In this document: positions 1-7,076 of the stretch, piece after piece | How positions within the stretch are numbered: position 1 is the first letter of the stretch | How the letters are laid out: each line of letters opens with the position of its first letter | Assembly: GCA_040881635.1 (NCBI GenBank) | Contig: JBBECV010000008.1 | Coordinates: forward strand, 596 to 64,595 | From: Thermoleophilaceae bacterium | Lineage (GTDB): Bacteria > Actinomycetota > Thermoleophilia > Solirubrobacterales > Thermoleophilaceae | DNA length: 64,000 nt | Direction: 5' to 3' | Notes under the pieces: generated by a model | Told to the model about the DNA's origin: nothing | Database searches by the model: none | The model's input: the letters and a program-made list of their open reading frames with translations, nothing else | Position numbers and translations under genes: made by a program

Positions 1-51
1 CGGAGGCTGTGCCTTGCGCCGAGAGCGGCGCCGTGATCTATTTCCCCGAGC

Positions 52-675
52 ATGCCATTCAGTCCGTACGACGCGGCCGCCGATGCACTGAAGCGTGCGG
101 ACGAGCTTCTCGACGCCTCCACGCGGAACGGCATACCGGAGCGGGTGGCCTCGGACATCCGCCGCTCGAGCCTCGTGCTTGCAGTCGCCGCGGTTGATAC
201 CTACATGCACCGCCTGATCGTGGATCGCGCTTCCATGTGGGACAAGCTGCCCAAGAAGCTCGCTGAGACCGGGGTGCGCTTCGATCAGCTGATCGCCGAG
301 GCGCAGGAGTCCTATGAGGCTGCCCGCCGCACGCCCTTCAACTCTCGGCCCGGTGTTCGCGTCAAGCAGATTCTACGTAACCAGCTCCTGCAGAGGACTT
401 TCCAGTCGTTGCGACAAATCGAGGAGGCGCTGACCATGGCTGGCGCCGCCGGGAATTGGAAGCCGATCAGCGAGCAGCTTGGCATGACAAGAGCGCAAGT
501 CGATGCACGTCTCGGACTCATCGTGATGCGACGCAACCAAATCGTCCATGAGGGTGACTACGCCAGGCTTGATCGTCCCAGAGACGCACGTCGGAACGAG
601 CTGTCCGAGTCGGACGCCCGAGCAAGCGTTCAGTTCCTCCGCGATCTTGCTGGCGCAATCCACGCAGTCGTGTGA
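52..675 (+). CDS. HEPN-superfamily protein (putative RNase), first gene of accessory operon
   Basis: 207-aa ORF with a C-terminal Rx4H motif, R161-NQIV-H166 (MRRNQIVHEGD, nt 532-549). This is the HEPN RNase signature seen in RiboL-PSP/Abi-like families. The next gene follows 55 nt downstream on the same strand. Confidence 0.6.
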   Translation: MPFSPYDAAADALKRADELLDASTRNGIPERVASDIRRSSLVLAVAAVDTYMHRLIVDRASMWDKLPKKLAETGVRFDQLIAEAQESYEAARRTPFNSRPGVRVKQILRNQLLQRTFQSLRQIEEALTMAGAAGNWKPISEQLGMTRAQVDARLGLIVMRRNQIVHEGDYARLDRPRDARRNELSESDARASVQFLRDLAGAIHAVV

Positions 676-729
676 CCGCGTCACCGTCCTACGCCTCACA
701 TTACCCCGGCGAGATAACGTCTCCCGCGC

Positions 730-2778
730 GTGCGATTCACAACACCTGCCCCTGACGGCAAACTCTTCCGACGCGTCCTAGCCCTCGCAAGAACCGCGCG
801 GGACACCGTCGGGTTCTTGCCCGACTCGGCCTTCAGAGATCGAGCCTTCGGAGGGACGCTTCTCGCCTGCGTGGCGGAAGACGATGGCCAAGAGCTTCTG
901 GGGTACGCGCTCTACGACCTTCCCCGGGACGAGATACGCCTCGGGCAGCTCGTAGTGGCTAGCCGCGCCCGGGACGGAGGGGTAGCACGCGCACTGGTAG
1001 ACGAGATCGAAGCGAGACACTCCCCTCGTCGAGGGATCTTCCTCTATTGCCGCAACGATTTCCCCGCTACCGAGATGTGGCCTCGAATTGGATTCGTAGC
1101 CCGTGACGAGCGTGCCGGCCGAAGCTTCGAGGGACACCCACTGACGCTCTGGTGGCGCGACTTCGGGCACGCAAACCTCTTCACATCTCAAGCCGAGGTG
1201 GATGCGCGTCCCGTGGCAGTGCTCGATGCGTGCGTCTTCTTCGATCTCGTCGGCAGCAACCCGAACCGGGCCTTGCAGGAGCTTAGGTCCGACTGGATTA
1301 CAGAGCATGCGCAGCTCGGAGTTACGGCCCATCTGTATGAGGAGATTCGCCGGGGCGCGGACTCGGTTCGGCGGAGACAGGAGCGAACAGCAGCTAGAGC
1401 CCTCGAGCTCCCGGGGATAGCAGGTTCCTCCTGGCGGGCCGTCCTCGCACAATTGAAGGCAATGCATCCAGGTGCTGCCGAGAAGGACAGGGACGACCTC
1501 ACGCATCTCGCATACGCGATCGCCCATCAGGCGACCTGGATGGTCACGTCGGATCGCTCATTCCGCGGTCGGTACGCCAACGCCGCCCTCGACATGGCAT
1601 CCGTCAAGCTCGTCTCCCCGGCAGAGGTGGTCCGAGAGATCGACGAGGTAGCACGTGGCGACGCATACAGCCCGAGAGACCTAGCCGGCACGGACATGAG
1701 CCGCCGAGAGGTGGATGCCGGCACTCTGGCTGGACTTGCCGAGCGATTCGTCAATCACCAGCGAGGCGAGAGGATTCGCGACCTGCGGTCGCGAATCGAT
1801 GCGGCCGCCGCGCAGGCCAGCCATGTCCGCCTCCAATTGGTGGAGGTTGACTCACAGCCGCGGGGCCTGCTCGGGTTCGAGCATAGCCGCGGGACCACAT
1901 TTGTGCGCTTCGTCCGGGTTTCTAGAGGCGTGGGAGACACCACAGTTGCTCGCCACTTGCTAGCGATGATCCGTAATGAGGCGGCGACGTCTGGTAGCTC
2001 ACGCATCGTGGTTCAAGACACGGCCGTTCCGACAGCCATCTCCCGAAGCTACGCCGACGAGGGATTCTTTGCCGAACGAGGACAGCCTGTTGAGGCATAC
2101 CCAATCACTGGCATCGGCACCCTCAACGATCTCGATCGCCGCCTCGCGACGATCGGCGCCCAAACAGCCACGGAGCGGCTGGGTGATCCCGCCACCGGAG
2201 CAAAGGTCGGTGCGGAGGCGGAGATCGCATATGCACCGTTTCGAATCCTTGGCATGGATTTTCCGACCTTTGTCGTACCGATCAAGCCCGCATGGGCGAC
2301 GGCACTCTTCGACTCACGACTCGCTGAGGAGCAGCTCTTCCATCGAGAGTGGACACTCGGTCTGAGGCGCGAGCTTGTGTACTACCGTAGCCCGCACGCC
2401 AGCGGAGGCATCCGGGCGCCCGCCCGGATTCTCTGGTACGTCTCTGGGGTCGACTCTCCCGGCGGCGCGGAGGTCCGAGCGGTATCCCAGCTTCGCGACG
2501 TCTTGGTTGCGCCGGCTGAGCACCTCTACAGGAGGTTCGAGCGTCTAGGTACCTATACCCTCGATCAAGTCGTCAGCCGGGCGGACTCGAAGGGGCGCGC
2601 AATGGCCCTACGCTTCTCCCATACCCATGAGTTTCGACGGCCTGTTCGGCTGGACGAGCTGCGAAGGATTCTTACCGGCGATCCGAAATCTCGAAGCGTG
2701 GTCCTCCAATCCCCTAGACTCATAGACGAACATACGTTCGCCACAATCATGGGTCTAGGGTTCCCAGATGACGTCTAG
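730..2778 (+). CDS. Multidomain GNAT - PIN - GNAT - ASCH/PUA-like fusion protein
   Basis: 682-aa ORF with a GTG start at 730 (start uncertain). Domains by eye: aa 15-145 GNAT (acetyl-CoA loop ASRARDGGVARALV). aa 160-285 PIN (VLDACVFFD ... DDLTHLAYAIAHQATWMVTSDRSF, VapC-like acidic residues). aa 365-455 second GNAT (VSRGVGDTTVARHLL). aa 510-680 beta-barrel-like module (FVVPIKPAWATALFD...) parallel to the downstream ASCH protein. Confidence 0.6.
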   Translation: MRFTTPAPDGKLFRRVLALARTARDTVGFLPDSAFRDRAFGGTLLACVAEDDGQELLGYALYDLPRDEIRLGQLVVASRARDGGVARALVDEIEARHSPRRGIFLYCRNDFPATEMWPRIGFVARDERAGRSFEGHPLTLWWRDFGHANLFTSQAEVDARPVAVLDACVFFDLVGSNPNRALQELRSDWITEHAQLGVTAHLYEEIRRGADSVRRRQERTAARALELPGIAGSSWRAVLAQLKAMHPGAAEKDRDDLTHLAYAIAHQATWMVTSDRSFRGRYANAALDMASVKLVSPAEVVREIDEVARGDAYSPRDLAGTDMSRREVDAGTLAGLAERFVNHQRGERIRDLRSRIDAAAAQASHVRLQLVEVDSQPRGLLGFEHSRGTTFVRFVRVSRGVGDTTVARHLLAMIRNEAATSGSSRIVVQDTAVPTAISRSYADEGFFAERGQPVEAYPITGIGTLNDLDRRLATIGAQTATERLGDPATGAKVGAEAEIAYAPFRILGMDFPTFVVPIKPAWATALFDSRLAEEQLFHREWTLGLRRELVYYRSPHASGGIRAPARILWYVSGVDSPGGAEVRAVSQLRDVLVAPAEHLYRRFERLGTYTLDQVVSRADSKGRAMALRFSHTHEFRRPVRLDELRRILTGDPKSRSVVLQSPRLIDEHTFATIMGLGFPDDV

Positions 2779-3229
2779 GGCAAGCGCGACGGTGCTACTG
2801 AGCGTGAAGCCACGCTTCGCGACGCTGCTTCTCGACGGCACGAAGACAGTGGAGATCCGGCGAGGTCGCGTCCGCCTTGAGGACGGCGCGACGTGCTTGC
2901 TGTACTCGAGTTCGCCCGAACGGGCGCTAGTCGGGACCGTCGAGGTCGGGACGACCGAGACCGGGCATCCTTCGGATATATGGGACCGCTGGGGAAGCCG
3001 TACAGGCCTGAGACGCGATGAGTTTGATGACTATCTACGCGACTGCGCCATGGCGACGGCCATCGTGATCCGTGAGGTCCAGCAACTCGAATCCCCGATT
3101 CCGCTCGACGTACTTCGAAACCGTCGAGAGGGGTTCGTGACCCCACAGAGCTATCGCTTCGTGGCAGACGAGGAGCGTCGTCTGCTGCTTGCCCAAGCCG
3201 GCGATAGCCACCCGTCGTATTCACTGTGA
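2768..3229 (+). CDS. ASCH domain protein
   Basis: 153 aa. The N-terminus VLLSVKPRFATLLLDGTKTVEIRRG matches the ASCH hallmark (IKP.yA..I..G.KtvE.RR). The ATG overlaps the end of the upstream gene by 11 nt, which suggests translational coupling. Confidence 0.7.
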   Translation: MTSRASATVLLSVKPRFATLLLDGTKTVEIRRGRVRLEDGATCLLYSSSPERALVGTVEVGTTETGHPSDIWDRWGSRTGLRRDEFDDYLRDCAMATAIVIREVQQLESPIPLDVLRNRREGFVTPQSYRFVADEERRLLLAQAGDSHPSYSL

Positions 3230-3273
3230 CCTAAGGCAGATTCAGCTCCACCCTTGTCGGCCTCGGAACCGCT

Positions 3274-3465
3274 CTAGCGCGGGTTCGCGGGCGGCGGGAT
3301 AGATAGCTGCCGGCAGACCTCGCGGCTGAGCCCTGGGCCGATTTCCTTGTGGCGCGGCACAGCCGACACCGCGCCGCTAGGGCCTCGCCATTTCGCGTGT
3401 TTCGATCCGCCTACCTCGCGGCAGCCATGAGTGCGCAGGTGGCGCTCGAGGTCGCGGCGCTTCAC
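3274..3465 (-). CDS. hicA: HicA-family mRNA interferase toxin
   Basis: 63 aa. MKRRDLERHLRTHGCREVGGSKHAKW...VPRHKEIGPGL fits the HicA/YcfA pattern. It has a 4-nt ATGA overlap with the upstream hicB. Confidence 0.85.
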   Translation of the reverse strand: MKRRDLERHLRTHGCREVGGSKHAKWRGPSGAVSAVPRHKEIGPGLSREVCRQLSIPPPANPR

Positions 3466-3692
3466 GCTGCGGCGGTGAAGCGCAGGTGCTCGCGGTCGGC
3501 CTTCGGCGCCTCGCCGGCGAGCTCCTCGTCCGGCGTCAGGACGGTGCTGAGAGCGTCCAGGACGTTCTCGCGCGCTTCTTCCCGAGTGCGGCCCTGGCTC
3601 ATCGCCCCCGGAACCTCAAGGACCCGAGCGACGATCCATCCCGCCTCGTCGGGCGGATCGAAGGCGATGGTGAAGTCGACTGAGGCAGCCAT
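3462..3692 (-). CDS. hicB: HicB-family antitoxin
   Basis: An internal ATG at 3692 within the 3462-4202 ORF gives a 76-aa product. FDPPDEAGWIVARVLEVPGAMSQGRTREEARENVLDAL is the HicB/UPF0150 signature. The upstream part of the long ORF is Arg-rich shadow. Confidence 0.8.
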   Translation of the reverse strand: MAASVDFTIAFDPPDEAGWIVARVLEVPGAMSQGRTREEARENVLDALSTVLTPDEELAGEAPKADREHLRFTAAA

Positions 3693-4040
3693 GAGGCGAA
3701 CGGTACCGGGTGCGAGCGGGGGCGTCCAGAAGGCAGCTGCAAGGCGGCTGGGGTCGTGCTCGCAACCTTGGTGCAAGTGTGTGGTCCGCTGGGCGGCAGC
3801 GAGGCGAGCAGCCATCGCGGGGCGAAGAGGGCGGGGCCCGGAGCGTCGCCGGGTCCAGGCGCGTTGACCGCACGAATCTGGGGGATCTGCGTCTACGGAG
3901 GAGATGGAGTCGTTCGAGCTGAGAGCAGGCAGTCGCAAGGTGATCGCAGGGGCGGGCGACTCGTCGGGCGCCGTCCCGAGTTTCCCTCCGCGTGGCGCGC
4001 GCCGGATCGGCGCCCGGCGAGCAAGCGTCGAGGTGCGGTC

Positions 4041-4268
4041 ATGACCGAGGACGACGATCCGGCCGACCCGGACGTCGAGCATCCGTTGTCGGAGCCGTTG
4101 CTTGATCCGGCGGGGGCTGCGGCGTTGTTGTCGGTGCGGCGGAGTTGGGTGTATGAGGCGGTGCGTGACGGCCGACTTCCGCATGTGAAGGTCGGCCGCC
4201 ACGTCCGGTTTCTGCGTGAGGATCTGGAGCGCTGGGTGTTCGCCCAGCGGAAGGGCCGGCTGTTCTAG
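4041..4268 (+). CDS. xis: Excisionase-family helix-turn-helix DNA-binding protein
   Basis: 75 aa from the ATG at 4041. LLSVRRSWVYEAVRDGRLPHVKVGRHVRFLREDLERWV is the excisionase/MerR-like HTH pattern, and the gene sits next to the integrase. Confidence 0.75.
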   Translation: MTEDDDPADPDVEHPLSEPLLDPAGAAALLSVRRSWVYEAVRDGRLPHVKVGRHVRFLREDLERWVFAQRKGRLF

Positions 4269-4597
4269 GCCATGGCCAGCTCGCTCGCCCTCGCCGCCGC
4301 GCGAGAGGCGAAGACGAAGCTGTCGATGCGGTGGACCAGGCCGGCGGCGGTGAGGCGGTTGAGGCCGTCGGTCGCGGCTATGGGGTCGCGCATCTCTCTG
4401 GCGATCTCCTCGACGGCCCAGATGCGATCCGCCAGCTGCGCACCAAACGCGGCATCAGCCAGGAGGACTTGGCCCCACGCTGCGGGAGTCACAACCGGCA
4501 CCCTGTCGGTGATCGAGCGTGGCAAGTCGAATCCGGCCTGGGGCACGGTCAAGGGGATCGCCAAGGCGCTCGACGTTCCCGTCGCCGACCTCGCCAA
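4265..4597 (-). CDS. Hypothetical small protein with winged-helix-like C-terminus (only the last ~60 codons look protein-like)
   Basis: The C-terminus ...IWAVEEIAREMRDPIAATDGLNRLTAAGLVHRIDSFVFASRAAA resembles a wHTH recognition region. The N-terminal half is antisense to the XRE remnant, so the real start is unclear. Confidence 0.25.
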   Translation of the reverse strand: MARSATGTSSALAIPLTVPQAGFDLPRSITDRVPVVTPAAWGQVLLADAAFGAQLADRIWAVEEIAREMRDPIAATDGLNRLTAAGLVHRIDSFVFASRAAARASELAMA

Positions 4598-4622
4598 GCT
4601 CGAGGCCAGCCTCGACCGCTGA
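4403..4622 (+). pseudogene. XRE-family HTH regulator, frameshifted
   Basis: The HTH signature is split across two frames. IRQLRTKRGISQEDLA lies in the frame of ORF 4331. AAGVTTGTLSVIERGKSNPAWGTVKGIAKALDVPVADL lies in the frame of ORF 4272. The frames rejoin if one C is removed from the CCCC run at about 4473-4476. Confidence 0.6.
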
Positions 4623-4642: not shown

Positions 4643-5773
4643 CTACGCCTCGAACGCTTGGGCGACCAGGGCGGCGTCGTCCTTGCGCGGCGCGTAGTGC
4701 AGGTAGCGCATCGTGGTCTTGATGTCGGCGTGGCCCATCCACTCCTGCACGCGGCGGATGTCGGCCACGCCGATCACACGCGTGCCGAAGGTGTGGCGCA
4801 GGTCGTGGAAGCGCAGACGCCGCAGACCGGCGCGATCGAGCGCGTCCTGGTAGCGGCGCCGCAGCGCCCTGCCGTCGAGGAAGCCGCCTGAGCGGCCGGG
4901 GAAAACGAGATCGTCGTCGCCCGTCCAACGTCCCCTGTCGCGCAGCCTCGTGAGCGCTGAGGCCACGTCAGGGGACAGCGGGACAGAACGGACCTTGCCC
5001 GACTTCGGCGTCGTCAGACCGCTCTCTGAGTACGAGGCCCGCACGCGGACCGTGTCGGCGTCGAAATCGACGTCGCGCCAGCGCAGCGCGATCAGCTCGC
5101 CGCGACGCAGACCGGTGTAGGCGGCGGTCAGGTAGATCGCGGCGTCCTGCTCGGAGGCCGCCGCGTCGACCAGCGCCGCGATCTCGTCCGGCGAGAACAC
5201 CTGGATGTCGCCGCTCGGCGTCGGCGCCGGCGGCTTCTCCACGTCGGCCACTGGATTGAACGGCAGGCCGTAGACCTTCCGCGCCCGCCTCATGATCCCG
5301 TTGAGCGCGACGAACGCCTTGGTCCGCGTGGCGGGCGCGCCGTCGAGGCCGGCGAGCCACGACTCGACCATCGGCGCCGTGATCGACTCGACGGCCATGT
5401 CGCCGAAGACCGTCAGCATCCGCGCCTTGATCAGCGCGCGGTAGACGGCGACCGTCGCGGGCTTGCGGCCGCGGTCGTGCTCCTGGTAGCGCAGCCACTC
5501 GTCGGCCGCCGCGGCGAACGTGATCCCGGTCCTCACGACACCCGGGTGCTGGCCGCGCTTGATCTCCTGCAGGAGCCCGTCGAGCGCGTCCTGCGCGGTC
5601 GTCTTCGTGAAGTAGCCCTCGGCGGGGCGGCCGCGTCGCGTCCACGCCGGCCCGAGCTTCTTCTGCACCTGGCGACCGTCCGGGAGCCGGTACTTCATGT
5701 ACCAGACCGGGCCGCGCTGGCGCTCGACTCTGAAGACGTGGCCGCTGACCGGCCGAGCGAGTTGGGTGCGCAC
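4643..5773 (-). CDS. int: Tyrosine-type site-specific integrase
   Basis: 376 aa. The catalytic region is HDLRHTFGT...WMGHADIKTTMRYLHY. GTG start preceded by a GGGAGG RBS. Adjacent to the tRNA 3-prime end. Confidence 0.95.
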   Translation of the reverse strand: MRTQLARPVSGHVFRVERQRGPVWYMKYRLPDGRQVQKKLGPAWTRRGRPAEGYFTKTTAQDALDGLLQEIKRGQHPGVVRTGITFAAAADEWLRYQEHDRGRKPATVAVYRALIKARMLTVFGDMAVESITAPMVESWLAGLDGAPATRTKAFVALNGIMRRARKVYGLPFNPVADVEKPPAPTPSGDIQVFSPDEIAALVDAAASEQDAAIYLTAAYTGLRRGELIALRWRDVDFDADTVRVRASYSESGLTTPKSGKVRSVPLSPDVASALTRLRDRGRWTGDDDLVFPGRSGGFLDGRALRRRYQDALDRAGLRRLRFHDLRHTFGTRVIGVADIRRVQEWMGHADIKTTMRYLHYAPRKDDAALVAQAFEA

Positions 5774-5903: not shown

Positions 5904-5976
<73 letters not shown>

Positions 5977-6533: not shown

Positions 6534-7076
6534 CTATGGGGGAGGAGGGATTCGAACCCGCTCAGGCGTAGCCACCGAATTTACAGTCCGGCCCGGCTCT
6601 CCAACTCCGGCGCTCCCCCGTGGAGCGGATGCCGATTCTAGAGGCTCAGATGAGCGACGCGGAGTCTGCGGGATCGGCCGGCCGCGCTCGACCTCGAAGC
6701 TCGCGTACTTCGGCCCGCCGAGGCGGAGCCCGGTTGCGCCATCAACTCGGTCGGCCGGAATGCACCAGCGCCGCCCATCGCCGACGTGGACGAAGAGGTA
6801 GTCGCAGCGAGTCGGGGAGAACCGCTTCGAGATCCCGTTCCAGCTCTGGTTGCCCCCACGCGTACAGATGGAGACCGCCCACCGATGCTTCTCAACGCAC
6901 CTCGTCGTCTTGACCTGAACGCGGAAGATGCGGTCGCCGAGCTCTACGGCCAAGTCCCAGTCCGGGCTATGGCCCAAGGGAAGCGCCACCTTGCCCCCCA
7001 TCGAGGCGAACAACTCGAGAGCCGACAGCTCGCCGAAATCCCCTTGCTCTTGCCTCGTCATGGGACGAACATACAT
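6534..7076 (-). CDS. PD-(D/E)XK endonuclease-like protein; ORF runs through tRNA-Tyr
   Basis: QGDFGELSALELFASMGGKVALPLGHSPDWDLAVELGDRIFRVQVKTT...CDYLFVHVGDGRRWCIP fits the group-I-intron-associated PD-(D/E)XK family layout. The recognisable domain ends near aa 132. The last ~45 codons are simply the tRNA translated. Confidence 0.55.
   Translation of the reverse strand: MYVRPMTRQEQGDFGELSALELFASMGGKVALPLGHSPDWDLAVELGDRIFRVQVKTTRCVEKHRWAVSICTRGGNQSWNGISKRFSPTRCDYLFVHVGDGRRWCIPADRVDGATGLRLGGPKYASFEVERGRPIPQTPRRSSEPLESASAPRGSAGVGEPGRTVNSVATPERVRIPPPP
6537..6619 (-). tRNA. tRNA-Tyr (anticodon GTA), long variable arm
   Basis: Minus-strand read. Acceptor GGGGGAG/CTCCCCC, anticodon loop C-T-GTA-A-A, long variable arm, T-loop TTCGAAT. 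There is one C-U mismatch in the T-stem. Confidence 0.85.

Follow-up and report, generated by a model that had tools for sequence, protein, structure and literature searches.

A double-GNAT protein and its ASCH partner on a tRNA-Thr island of a Thermoleophilaceae bacterium form a probable divergent branch of the phage defence candidate class PDC-M11

The window analysed here is a stretch of 64,000 nucleotides (nt) of a Thermoleophilaceae bacterium (assembly GCA_040881635.1, contig JBBECV010000008.1, positions 596 to 64,595), and near its left end a small integrative island at a tRNA-Thr gene carries three genes on the forward strand. These are gene 1 (52-675, +, 207 amino acids (aa)), encoding a RiboL-PSP-type HEPN protein, gene 2 (730-2778, +, 682 aa), encoding a GNAT-PIN-GNAT-PUA-like protein, and gene 3 (2768-3229, +, 153 aa), encoding a stand-alone ASCH protein. 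The conserved functional unit is the pair of gene 2 and gene 3, the large and the small subunit, rather than the trio. This pair is probably a divergent branch of the class that PADLOC-DB v2 lists as phage defence candidate PDC-M11 (A + B), with an extra N-terminal GNAT domain and without the AAA_17 ATPase. With a probability of about 0.6, it is a two-gene conflict module of this class (anti-invader defence, abortive infection or toxin-like) that works independently of the HEPN gene. An initial annotation had described the three genes as a candidate for an undescribed three-gene RNA-targeting conflict system; its view of a conflict-type locus, whether defence or toxin, is supported by the results below, while the three-gene composition and the novelty did not hold.

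Full-length homologues of gene 2 (about 680 aa) made up 85 clusters in a word-indexed search. When gene 2 was searched by phmmer against 1.84 billion representatives, 1,848 matches were obtained, 875 of them at E<=1e-30, where each representative stands for a cluster at 50% identity; the best 150 matches listed were mostly full-length, with about 680-710 aa. The gene neighbourhood was studied at 65 loci from a scan that was seeded with two peptide motifs and covered one genome per species in 185,579 species, and the counts are therefore approximate. Open reading frames (ORFs) at these loci are longest-ORF approximations from six frames, and gene 3 was found there by iterated profile searches. 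The loci were scattered sporadically over more than 10 phyla, with sources in Actinomycetota, Chloroflexota, Latescibacterota, Planctomycetota, Verrucomicrobiota, Acidobacteriota, Bacteroidota, Pseudomonadota, Desulfovibrionaceae and others. In 64 of the 65, gene 2 was immediately followed by a gene 3 homologue, the exception being a locus with a gene 2 fragment only. A start codon fell within -12 to +5 nt of the gene 2 stop in 55 of these 64 loci (34 with a 4-nt overlap), which is consistent with translational coupling; in the window the two genes overlap by 11 nt on the same strand, as had been annotated. In addition, one homologue (P0351, 860 aa) is a natural in-frame fusion in which an intact gene 2 part precedes an ASCH domain of gene 3 type. 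No phage-borne copies were detected, either when viral contigs were scanned with patterns of both families or when phage genomes were searched with gene 2 by tblastn, the sensitivity of the scans being limited.

Gene 1 could have been expected to belong to the same operon, and the initial annotation had indeed joined HEPN, GNAT-PIN-GNAT-ASCH and ASCH into one RNA-targeting system. The three genes lie on one strand, the gap between gene 1 and gene 2 is 54 nt (676-729; given earlier as 55 nt), a promoter and terminator scan of positions 1-3600 revealed no such site in this gap, co-transcription is possible, and each of the three proteins has a plausible RNA-directed activity. Nevertheless, none of the 65 other loci with gene 2 had a detectable gene 1 homologue. 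The three closest relatives of gene 2 (67, 59 and 52% identity) had gene 3 and no HEPN gene upstream. Gene 1-type HEPN was searched for by profile, while other HEPN families were covered by running Pfam on the largest ORF upstream of gene 2 at each of 56 loci, where no HEPN family stood among the 25 commonest of 62. From the other side, the three closest relatives of gene 1 (72, 67 and 67% identity) had neither gene 2 nor gene 3 nearby and no recurrent partner, and the juxtaposition of HEPN and the pair was met only on this island. A lack of co-localisation in other genomes was among the results that the initial annotation itself had named as refuting the trio. Since there was no co-occurrence at these gene 2 loci and the closest gene 1 relatives stand alone, gene 1 is an independent, stand-alone HEPN cargo gene that happens to sit upstream of the pair, and a single three-gene system is very improbable.

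As to its identity, gene 1 matched Pfam HEPN_RiboL-PSP (PF18735; E 7.6e-8, 32.9 bits against a cut-off of 28.4) and phrog_13503 (9e-34), and no PADLOC profile matched it. The motif R160-R161-N162...H166-E167-G168-D169-Y170 (RRNxxxHEGDY) was invariant in 32 homologues and includes R161-x4-H166, the HEPN signature that had been recognised in the initial annotation. In the AlphaFold2 (AF2) model the protein is all-alpha (predicted local distance difference test score, pLDDT, 83), and helix 147-166 ends in the motif. Foldseek of this model against the PDB gave no significant match, the only one relevant to the family being weak (7bxo_F, probability 0.6); 7BXO, which we take for a HEPN/MNT pair, was deposited as 'toxin-antitoxin with AMP-PNP'. 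It is therefore the Pfam profile and the motif that identify gene 1 as HEPN. Gene 1 is like the RiboL-PSP-HEPN and HEPN-MNT proteins in its above-threshold PF18735 match and its invariant R-x4-H, but it differs from HEPN-MNT systems in that no MNT nucleotidyltransferase gene stands beside it in the window, on the identical public contig L001 (see below) or near its close relatives, and the earlier exclusion of HEPN-MNT is upheld.

Four domains were identified in gene 2. The N-terminal GNAT (GNAT1, residues 1-150; 730-1179, +) matched Pfam Acetyltransf_1/7/10 at residues 34-127 and is extra in comparison with PIN-GNAT-EVE proteins. It is followed by a VapC-like PIN domain (residues ~160-295; 1207-1614, +), with Pfam PIN_3 at 2.1e-9 (residues 163-276) and PIN at 1.9e-5. 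The second, central GNAT (GNAT2, residues ~320-465; 1687-2124, +) is the counterpart of the GNAT in PIN-GNAT-EVE proteins, and a C-terminal PUA-like domain of EVE/ASCH type (residues ~495-682; 2212-2778, +) was recognised by the PADLOC PDC-M11A profile, Foldseek and hhalign. In an alignment of 44 homologues, the acidic residues D166, E205, D256 and D275 of the PIN domain were all invariant. For GNAT1, G84 of motif A was invariant and A86 and R87 were near-invariant, with C107, R108, D110 and W117 also invariant; for GNAT2, R396 and D430 were invariant and G400, T405 and R408 near-invariant. The sequence support for GNAT2 was weak (NCBIfam ArsN2 at residues 370-427, 1.5e-5), and its order of strands and helices in the AF2 model is typical of GNAT.

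The AF2 model of gene 2, built on the 44 homologues, had a mean pLDDT of 87, and Foldseek matched it to GNAT acetyltransferases and to ZmASCH of Zymomonas mobilis, an ASCH protein (target-normalised TM 0.75-0.81); the C-terminal domain is thus predicted to share the ZmASCH fold. Pfam gave no match to the isolated C-terminal domain, and it is for this reason not assignable by Pfam to EVE rather than ASCH. When the gene 2 family profile was compared with PDB sequences, only generic GNAT matches to the N-terminal domain were obtained; the other three domains (PIN, GNAT2 and PUA-like) had no match, and GNAT-toxin structures were absent from the results. Profile and structure searches together upheld the domain assignments that had been made for the three proteins, including the GNAT-PIN-GNAT-ASCH/PUA-like order of gene 2 with its weak GNAT2 signal.

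Some homologues of gene 2 have unusual ends. P0313 (residues 1-256) and P0324 (residues 1-248), proteins of about 910-926 aa, have mutually similar N-terminal extensions of about 250 aa, which may represent an additional domain or stem from gene calling that joined an upstream gene to gene 2; they were considered as possible HEPN fusions, and Pfam gave no match. In P0441 (832 aa) the normal gene 2 C-terminus was lost before the ASCH part, which may be a fusion or a frameshift.

Gene 3 had been annotated as a clean stand-alone ASCH protein, and this is borne out by several searches. The Pfam ASCH match was marginal (4e-4, 21.4 bits against a cut-off of 21.2), while PADLOC PDC-M11B (PDLC04424) was matched at 2.2e-30 (residues 4-138 aligned with positions 5-135 of a profile of 142) and phrog_3136 at 5e-28. 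By sequence, gene 3 is also a homologue of ZmASCH (PDB 5GUQ/5GUS), with E 2e-15 to 5GUQ over residues 9-142. Among 33 homologues, the ASCH signature GxKxxExR (G24, K26, E29 and R31) was invariant, and so were Y46, Y89 and Q127, with S128 nearly so; these are the counterparts of the cleft residues Y47, Y90, Q127 and S128 of ZmASCH, while K53 of ZmASCH is replaced by Arg in gene 3. ZmASCH binds both single-stranded DNA and single-stranded RNA and shows Mg-dependent cleavage of single-stranded RNA in vitro, and its cleft includes Y47, K53 and S128 (Kim et al. 2017, PMC5615036). It was studied there as an isolated protein, its genomic partner and cellular role not being addressed (PMC5615036).

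The deposited name of ZmASCH (5GUQ) is 'Helix-turn-helix domain-containing protein'. HTH-ASCH fusions partner (PIN)-GNAT-EVE proteins mostly in alphaproteobacteria (Bell et al. 2020, PMC7641849), and since Zymomonas is an alphaproteobacterium, ZmASCH may be the B component of such a system.

Operons of (PIN)-GNAT-EVE + ASCH, with or without an AAA_17 ATPase, were described computationally by Bell et al. 2020 (BMC Biol, PMC7641849), who credit the first description of (PIN)-GNAT-EVE + ASCH to Iyer et al. 2013 (NAR). According to the same paper they are putative toxin-antitoxin or defence systems, often located beside type I restriction-modification (RM) genes, the AAA_17 ATPase is frequent and not obligatory, and no module of the (PIN)-GNAT-EVE class was characterised experimentally (PMC7641849). 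A double-GNAT architecture finds no mention there (PMC7641849). The gene 2-gene 3 pair shares with PDC-M11 a large protein in which PIN, GNAT and a PUA-like reader at the C-terminus come in this order, together with an adjacent, co-directional gene for a small ASCH protein, and gene 3 matches the B profile over its full length. Canonical members could be reached from gene 3: its distant relatives P0162 and P0182 have as partners full-length PDC-M11A proteins of about 490 aa (E 1e-126 to 1e-132), which carry a Pfam GNAT match and a weak EVE match, and at three loci (L073-L075) an AAA_17 ATPase gene follows the genes of the ~490-aa PDC-M11A and ASCH proteins, in agreement with the operon of Bell et al. 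(PMC7641849).

For gene 2 the link was made through profiles. Two of its relatives (L025 and L039) matched both ends of PDC-M11A, residues 163-320 against profile positions 3-158 (PIN) and residues ~488-637 against positions 311-464 (EVE). In hhalign, the gene 2 family profile was aligned to a bona fide PDC-M11A protein with a probability of 87% over the GNAT and EVE region only, residues 387-450 of gene 2 being aligned to its GNAT region. Canonical PDC-M11A proteins start at the PIN domain, without an N-terminal GNAT. Read along the sequence, residues ~160-682 of gene 2 appear collinear with a whole PIN-GNAT-EVE protein and residues 1-150 appear to be an added GNAT, to which the length of about 680 aa, compared with about 490 aa in canonical A proteins, is due. 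The AAA_17 component, for which PADLOC has no model, was found in none of the 65 loci when the AAA_17 protein of L073 was used as the seed of the search, nor was it present on the island of the window. Both the canonical class and the double-GNAT branch are associated with RM genes and defence islands, but the RM partners of the double-GNAT branch are mostly type IIG/ISP-like and not type I. What is new here is a variant architecture (the extra N-terminal GNAT and no AAA_17 partner), not a kind of system, and the claim that the locus is undescribed does not stand, although gene 2 maps onto the class only partly.

The pair also differs from two groups of toxin-antitoxin systems. GNAT/RHH toxin-antitoxin systems (TacAT, AtaRT, KacAT and ItaRT) have in common with it an acetyl-CoA-dependent GNAT in a small mobile conflict module, and they are the source of the idea that acetylation blocks translation. 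However, they consist of a single-domain toxin with a DUF1778/RHH antitoxin, while gene 2 has four domains and an ASCH partner with no RHH, and its GNATs showed no specific similarity to those toxins in the profile search of PDB sequences. VapBC shares with gene 2 the VapC-like PIN_3 domain, which in gene 2 has all four of the acidic residues; it differs in that the PIN domain of gene 2 lies between two GNATs in a 682-aa protein and no VapB-type antitoxin gene is found upstream, where the gene is HEPN in the window and varies elsewhere. The statements of the initial annotation that the locus is neither GNAT-RHH nor VapBC are in agreement with these results.

The neighbours of the pair across genomes form a defence-island pattern, which fits the low-G+C mobile island in the window. 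A large methylase-restriction gene of Eco57I/MmeI type or Type-ISP type was found within flanks of about 7 kb in at least 21 of the 65 loci, and in eight loci from several phyla such a gene was the immediate neighbour of the pair on the same strand, at a distance of -55 to +98 nt. This direct adjacency looks like more than loose defence-island clustering. N6 methylase genes were near the pair in Streptomyces loci, and Fic, HipA, RhuM and UvrD-type genes were also among the neighbours. On a plasmid of Calothrix PCC 6303, the pair lies between a type II RM system, a Dcm methylase with Eco29kI endonuclease, on one side and an AAA ATPase with a McrC-like protein on the other. The eight RM-adjacent loci are L012, L014, L020, L023, L025, L028, L037 and L045, in which the neighbour occupies about 3.5-7 kb; the encoded proteins have about 1,060-2,250 aa with Eco57I/TaqI_C or N6_Mtase/Type_ISP_C domains and are located upstream, except in L020, where the gene is downstream.

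In this context the pair could be regarded as a DNA-directed adjunct of RM systems, in which the PUA-like domains would read modified bases of the invader, the GNATs would acetylate DNA or a hypermodified phage base, and PIN would act on DNA or transcripts. Acetylation of a DNA base by GNAT was reportedly proposed by Iyer et al. 2013. The RM genes of the eight loci and of the wider set of at least 21, together with the Calothrix plasmid, where the flanking AAA ATPase and McrC-like protein form a McrBC-like pair, agree with such a role. The VapC-like PIN_3 type speaks for RNA instead, its characterised members being RNases, as does the cleavage of single-stranded RNA by the only characterised homologue of gene 3; moreover, adjacency in a defence island is by itself no proof of a shared substrate, and the island of the window, where the co-cargo of the pair is HEPN and hicAB, has no RM gene. 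Further points in favour of DNA come from published work, in which fusions of ASCH-HsdS and HTH-ASCH were observed (PMC7641849) and PUA-like readers are used in type IV restriction (PMC10853773). A DNA-directed adjunct is possible, and we give it only limited credence.

If the pair is a conflict module acting on RNA, its domains offer a plausible course of events. PIN domains of the VapC-like type act as RNases that depend on metal, GNAT domains pass an acyl group from acyl-CoA to amines, with some GNAT toxins acetylating aminoacyl-tRNA, and PUA-like domains (PUA, ASCH, EVE, YTH and SRA) bind RNA or flip out modified bases. The PUA-like modules at the C-terminus of gene 2 and in gene 3 would dock the gene 2/gene 3 complex on a nucleic acid with a particular, probably modified, base, the likeliest target being an RNA such as tRNA. 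Then the PIN domain would cleave the bound nucleic acid and the GNAT domains would move acetyl from acetyl-CoA to an amino group of the bound substrate, so that translation, or else the replication of the invader, could be stopped. RNA is favoured as the target because both the type of the PIN domain and ZmASCH point to it. The invariant PIN residues, motif A of GNAT1 and the ASCH cleft are consistent with activity. Gene 3 would take part in stoichiometric amounts, as a co-reader or modulator and not as a labile antitoxin, because a gene 2-gene 3 fusion protein exists and suggests a stable subunit.

The pair could also be a classical type II toxin-antitoxin system that stabilises the island, with gene 2 as the toxin, gene 3 as the antitoxin and no dedicated anti-phage role. 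PIN and GNAT are common as toxin domains, the two genes are tightly coupled, and they are carried on a small mobile island where they adjoin another, putative toxin-antitoxin pair, hicAB; such operons were also classed as putative toxin-antitoxin systems by Bell et al. (PMC7641849). On the other hand, the presumed antitoxin would be a conserved, enzyme-like ASCH protein with an invariant nucleic-acid cleft, not one with the usual build of a DNA-binding part plus a disordered part, and it is encoded downstream of the toxin. The in-frame fusion is easier to reconcile with a stable complex than with a labile antitoxin, and the frequent direct adjacency to RM genes fits a defence role, which makes a plain type II toxin-antitoxin system unlikely.

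GNAT enzymes are known to write N4-acetylcytidine, and the ASCH protein YqfB hydrolyses N4-acetylcytidine, so a housekeeping RNA modification with a GNAT writer and an ASCH eraser and without any role in conflict was also considered. Gene 3 has Glu at the position where YqfB, as we presume, has its Thr nucleophile, and an invariant PIN nuclease domain is present in gene 2; both speak against this reading. The distribution is sporadic, with 65 loci in many phyla in the pattern-seeded scan of 185,579 species, and the pair occurs on a low-G+C integrative island, on plasmids and beside RM genes. Although PUA-like domains are common in RNA-modification enzymes (PMC7641849), a housekeeping function is to be regarded as most improbable. 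A bolder proposal keeps the conflict role and takes the pair as a writer-reader-eraser immune or toxin module that acetylates a nucleic-acid base or aminoacyl-tRNA, with two GNAT writers, PUA-like readers that direct them to a modified base, a PIN nuclease and perhaps an ASCH hydrolase or nuclease as eraser, all within one complex. The double-GNAT branch would then be a pseudo-dimeric version of the module. We judge this distinctly unlikely; if true, it would have no experimentally known counterpart.

Several observations weigh against the pair being a PDC-M11 conflict module directed at RNA, and they concern its class, its chemistry and its target. Gene 2 itself matched the PDC-M11A profile at residues 496-654 (positions 314-468 of 486, 1.3e-10), which are its C-terminal ~155 residues only and about a third of the profile, and BLASTP of gene 2 against canonical PDC-M11A was insignificant (E 0.037 over the C-terminus), so that profile methods were needed for the link. 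The N-terminal GNAT resembles RimI, Naa10 and AAC(3)-type enzymes, acetyltransferases of proteins and small molecules, and not the tRNA-acetylating GNAT toxins. In the alignment, the position of the usual Tyr in motif B of GNAT1 is taken by the invariant Trp W117, and the activity of GNAT1 is not assured in view of this reading. The adjacency to RM genes and the published ASCH-HsdS and HTH-ASCH fusions point to DNA being read (PMC7641849). For gene 3, the roles of co-reader, nuclease, deacetylase and antitoxin are all candidates. In addition, the searchable literature yielded no experiment on PDC-M11 or on GNAT-EVE systems, and PDC-M11 is still a 'candidate'; the only other mention found is in a list of 'phage defence candidate' matches in an E. 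coli strain.

As a two-gene conflict module, the pair is a good experimental candidate and not an undescribed system. The double-GNAT branch comprises at least 875 clusters at 50% identity, is phylogenetically wide and has been annotated just as "GNAT family N-acetyltransferase"; it is an abundant, previously unremarked variant within a predicted class, and it has an obligatory ASCH partner. ZmASCH, the one ASCH protein for which RNase activity has been reported, is a homologue of this gene 3-type partner, and in many cases type IIG/ISP RM genes directly adjoin the pair in this branch. If the pair is a defence system, acetyltransferase chemistry and PUA-like base readers would join the known types of effectors and sensors, and the orphan biochemistry of ZmASCH would be given a cellular context. 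The compact island of the window, which in 6.1 kb holds three RNA-directed modules as independent cargo (HEPN, the pair and hicAB), would be a tidy test object.

Two further gene arrangements were observed in other genomes. In five loci of Prevotella/Bacteroidales (L036, L038, L039, L043 and L046), genes for an AAA_15/SMC_N ATPase (~627 aa) and then an HNH_5 nuclease (~300 aa) are upstream of gene 2, the end of the HNH_5 gene overlapping the start of gene 2 by about 20 nt, which suggests a four-gene arrangement in this clade. The canonical PDC-M11 locus L073 (2459-2983 and onward) has genes for a 490-aa A protein, a 155-aa B protein, AAA_17 and then a 178-aa protein of no assigned family; these are followed by HNH_5, a PRTase with wHTH and reverse transcriptase, UvrD-like and OLD-like genes, and is a dense defence island.

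On the island of the window, the pair is followed by hicAB on the reverse strand, a separate, putative toxin-antitoxin module and the third independent cargo. The hicA toxin gene (3274-3465, -) encodes 63 aa with a match to Pfam HicA_toxin (PF07927, 2.2e-9), and the hicB-like antitoxin gene (3462-3776, -; 104 aa as called on L001) is directly upstream of hicA and overlaps it, its product having weak similarity to UPF0150 and HicB_lk_antitox (E 0.03-0.09). A terminator-like site at 3323-3340 was found in the scan of positions 1-3600, within chance expectation. Then follow an HTH_17 excisionase-like gene (4041-4268, +; Pfam HTH_17 2.3e-13) and an HTH_3 (XRE-type) regulator gene (4272-4622, +; Pfam HTH_3 1.2e-5), both as gene calls on L001, and a tyrosine integrase gene (4643-5773, -; Pfam Phage_integrase 8.9e-32). 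The right end is marked by tRNA-Thr(GGT) (5904-5976, -; ARAGORN), the 3' 42 nt of which (5904-5945) are attR. The G+C content is about 63% over positions 1-3500, compared with 70-75% beyond the tRNA.

The left end could be found with the help of L001, a public contig of 6,133 bp which is identical to the island and reaches 200 nt beyond the left edge of the window. A direct repeat of 42 nt of the tRNA-Thr 3' end is present at both sides, positions 1-42 of L001 being identical to 5904-5945 of the window, and the attL copy accordingly precedes window position 1 by about 200 nt. Because of this repeat, the element is an integrative island of about 6.1 kb with att direct repeats at both ends. The mobile-island context of the initial annotation, with its integrase, excisionase-like gene, hicA and hicB-like genes and tRNA attachment site, was confirmed in this way by Pfam, ARAGORN and the 42-nt att repeat. 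L001 is recorded in 3 samples and both of its ends fall in the 42-nt repeat, which could be an assembly break at the repeat or an excised circular form.

Just beyond the island, an ORF of 180 aa (6534-7076, -) encodes a PD-(D/E)XK endonuclease domain (PDDEXK_5, E 3.8e-7). Its final ~28 codons cross tRNA-Tyr (6537-6619, -) on the same strand, so either the true stop or extent of the ORF differs, or the gene truly overlaps the tRNA gene.

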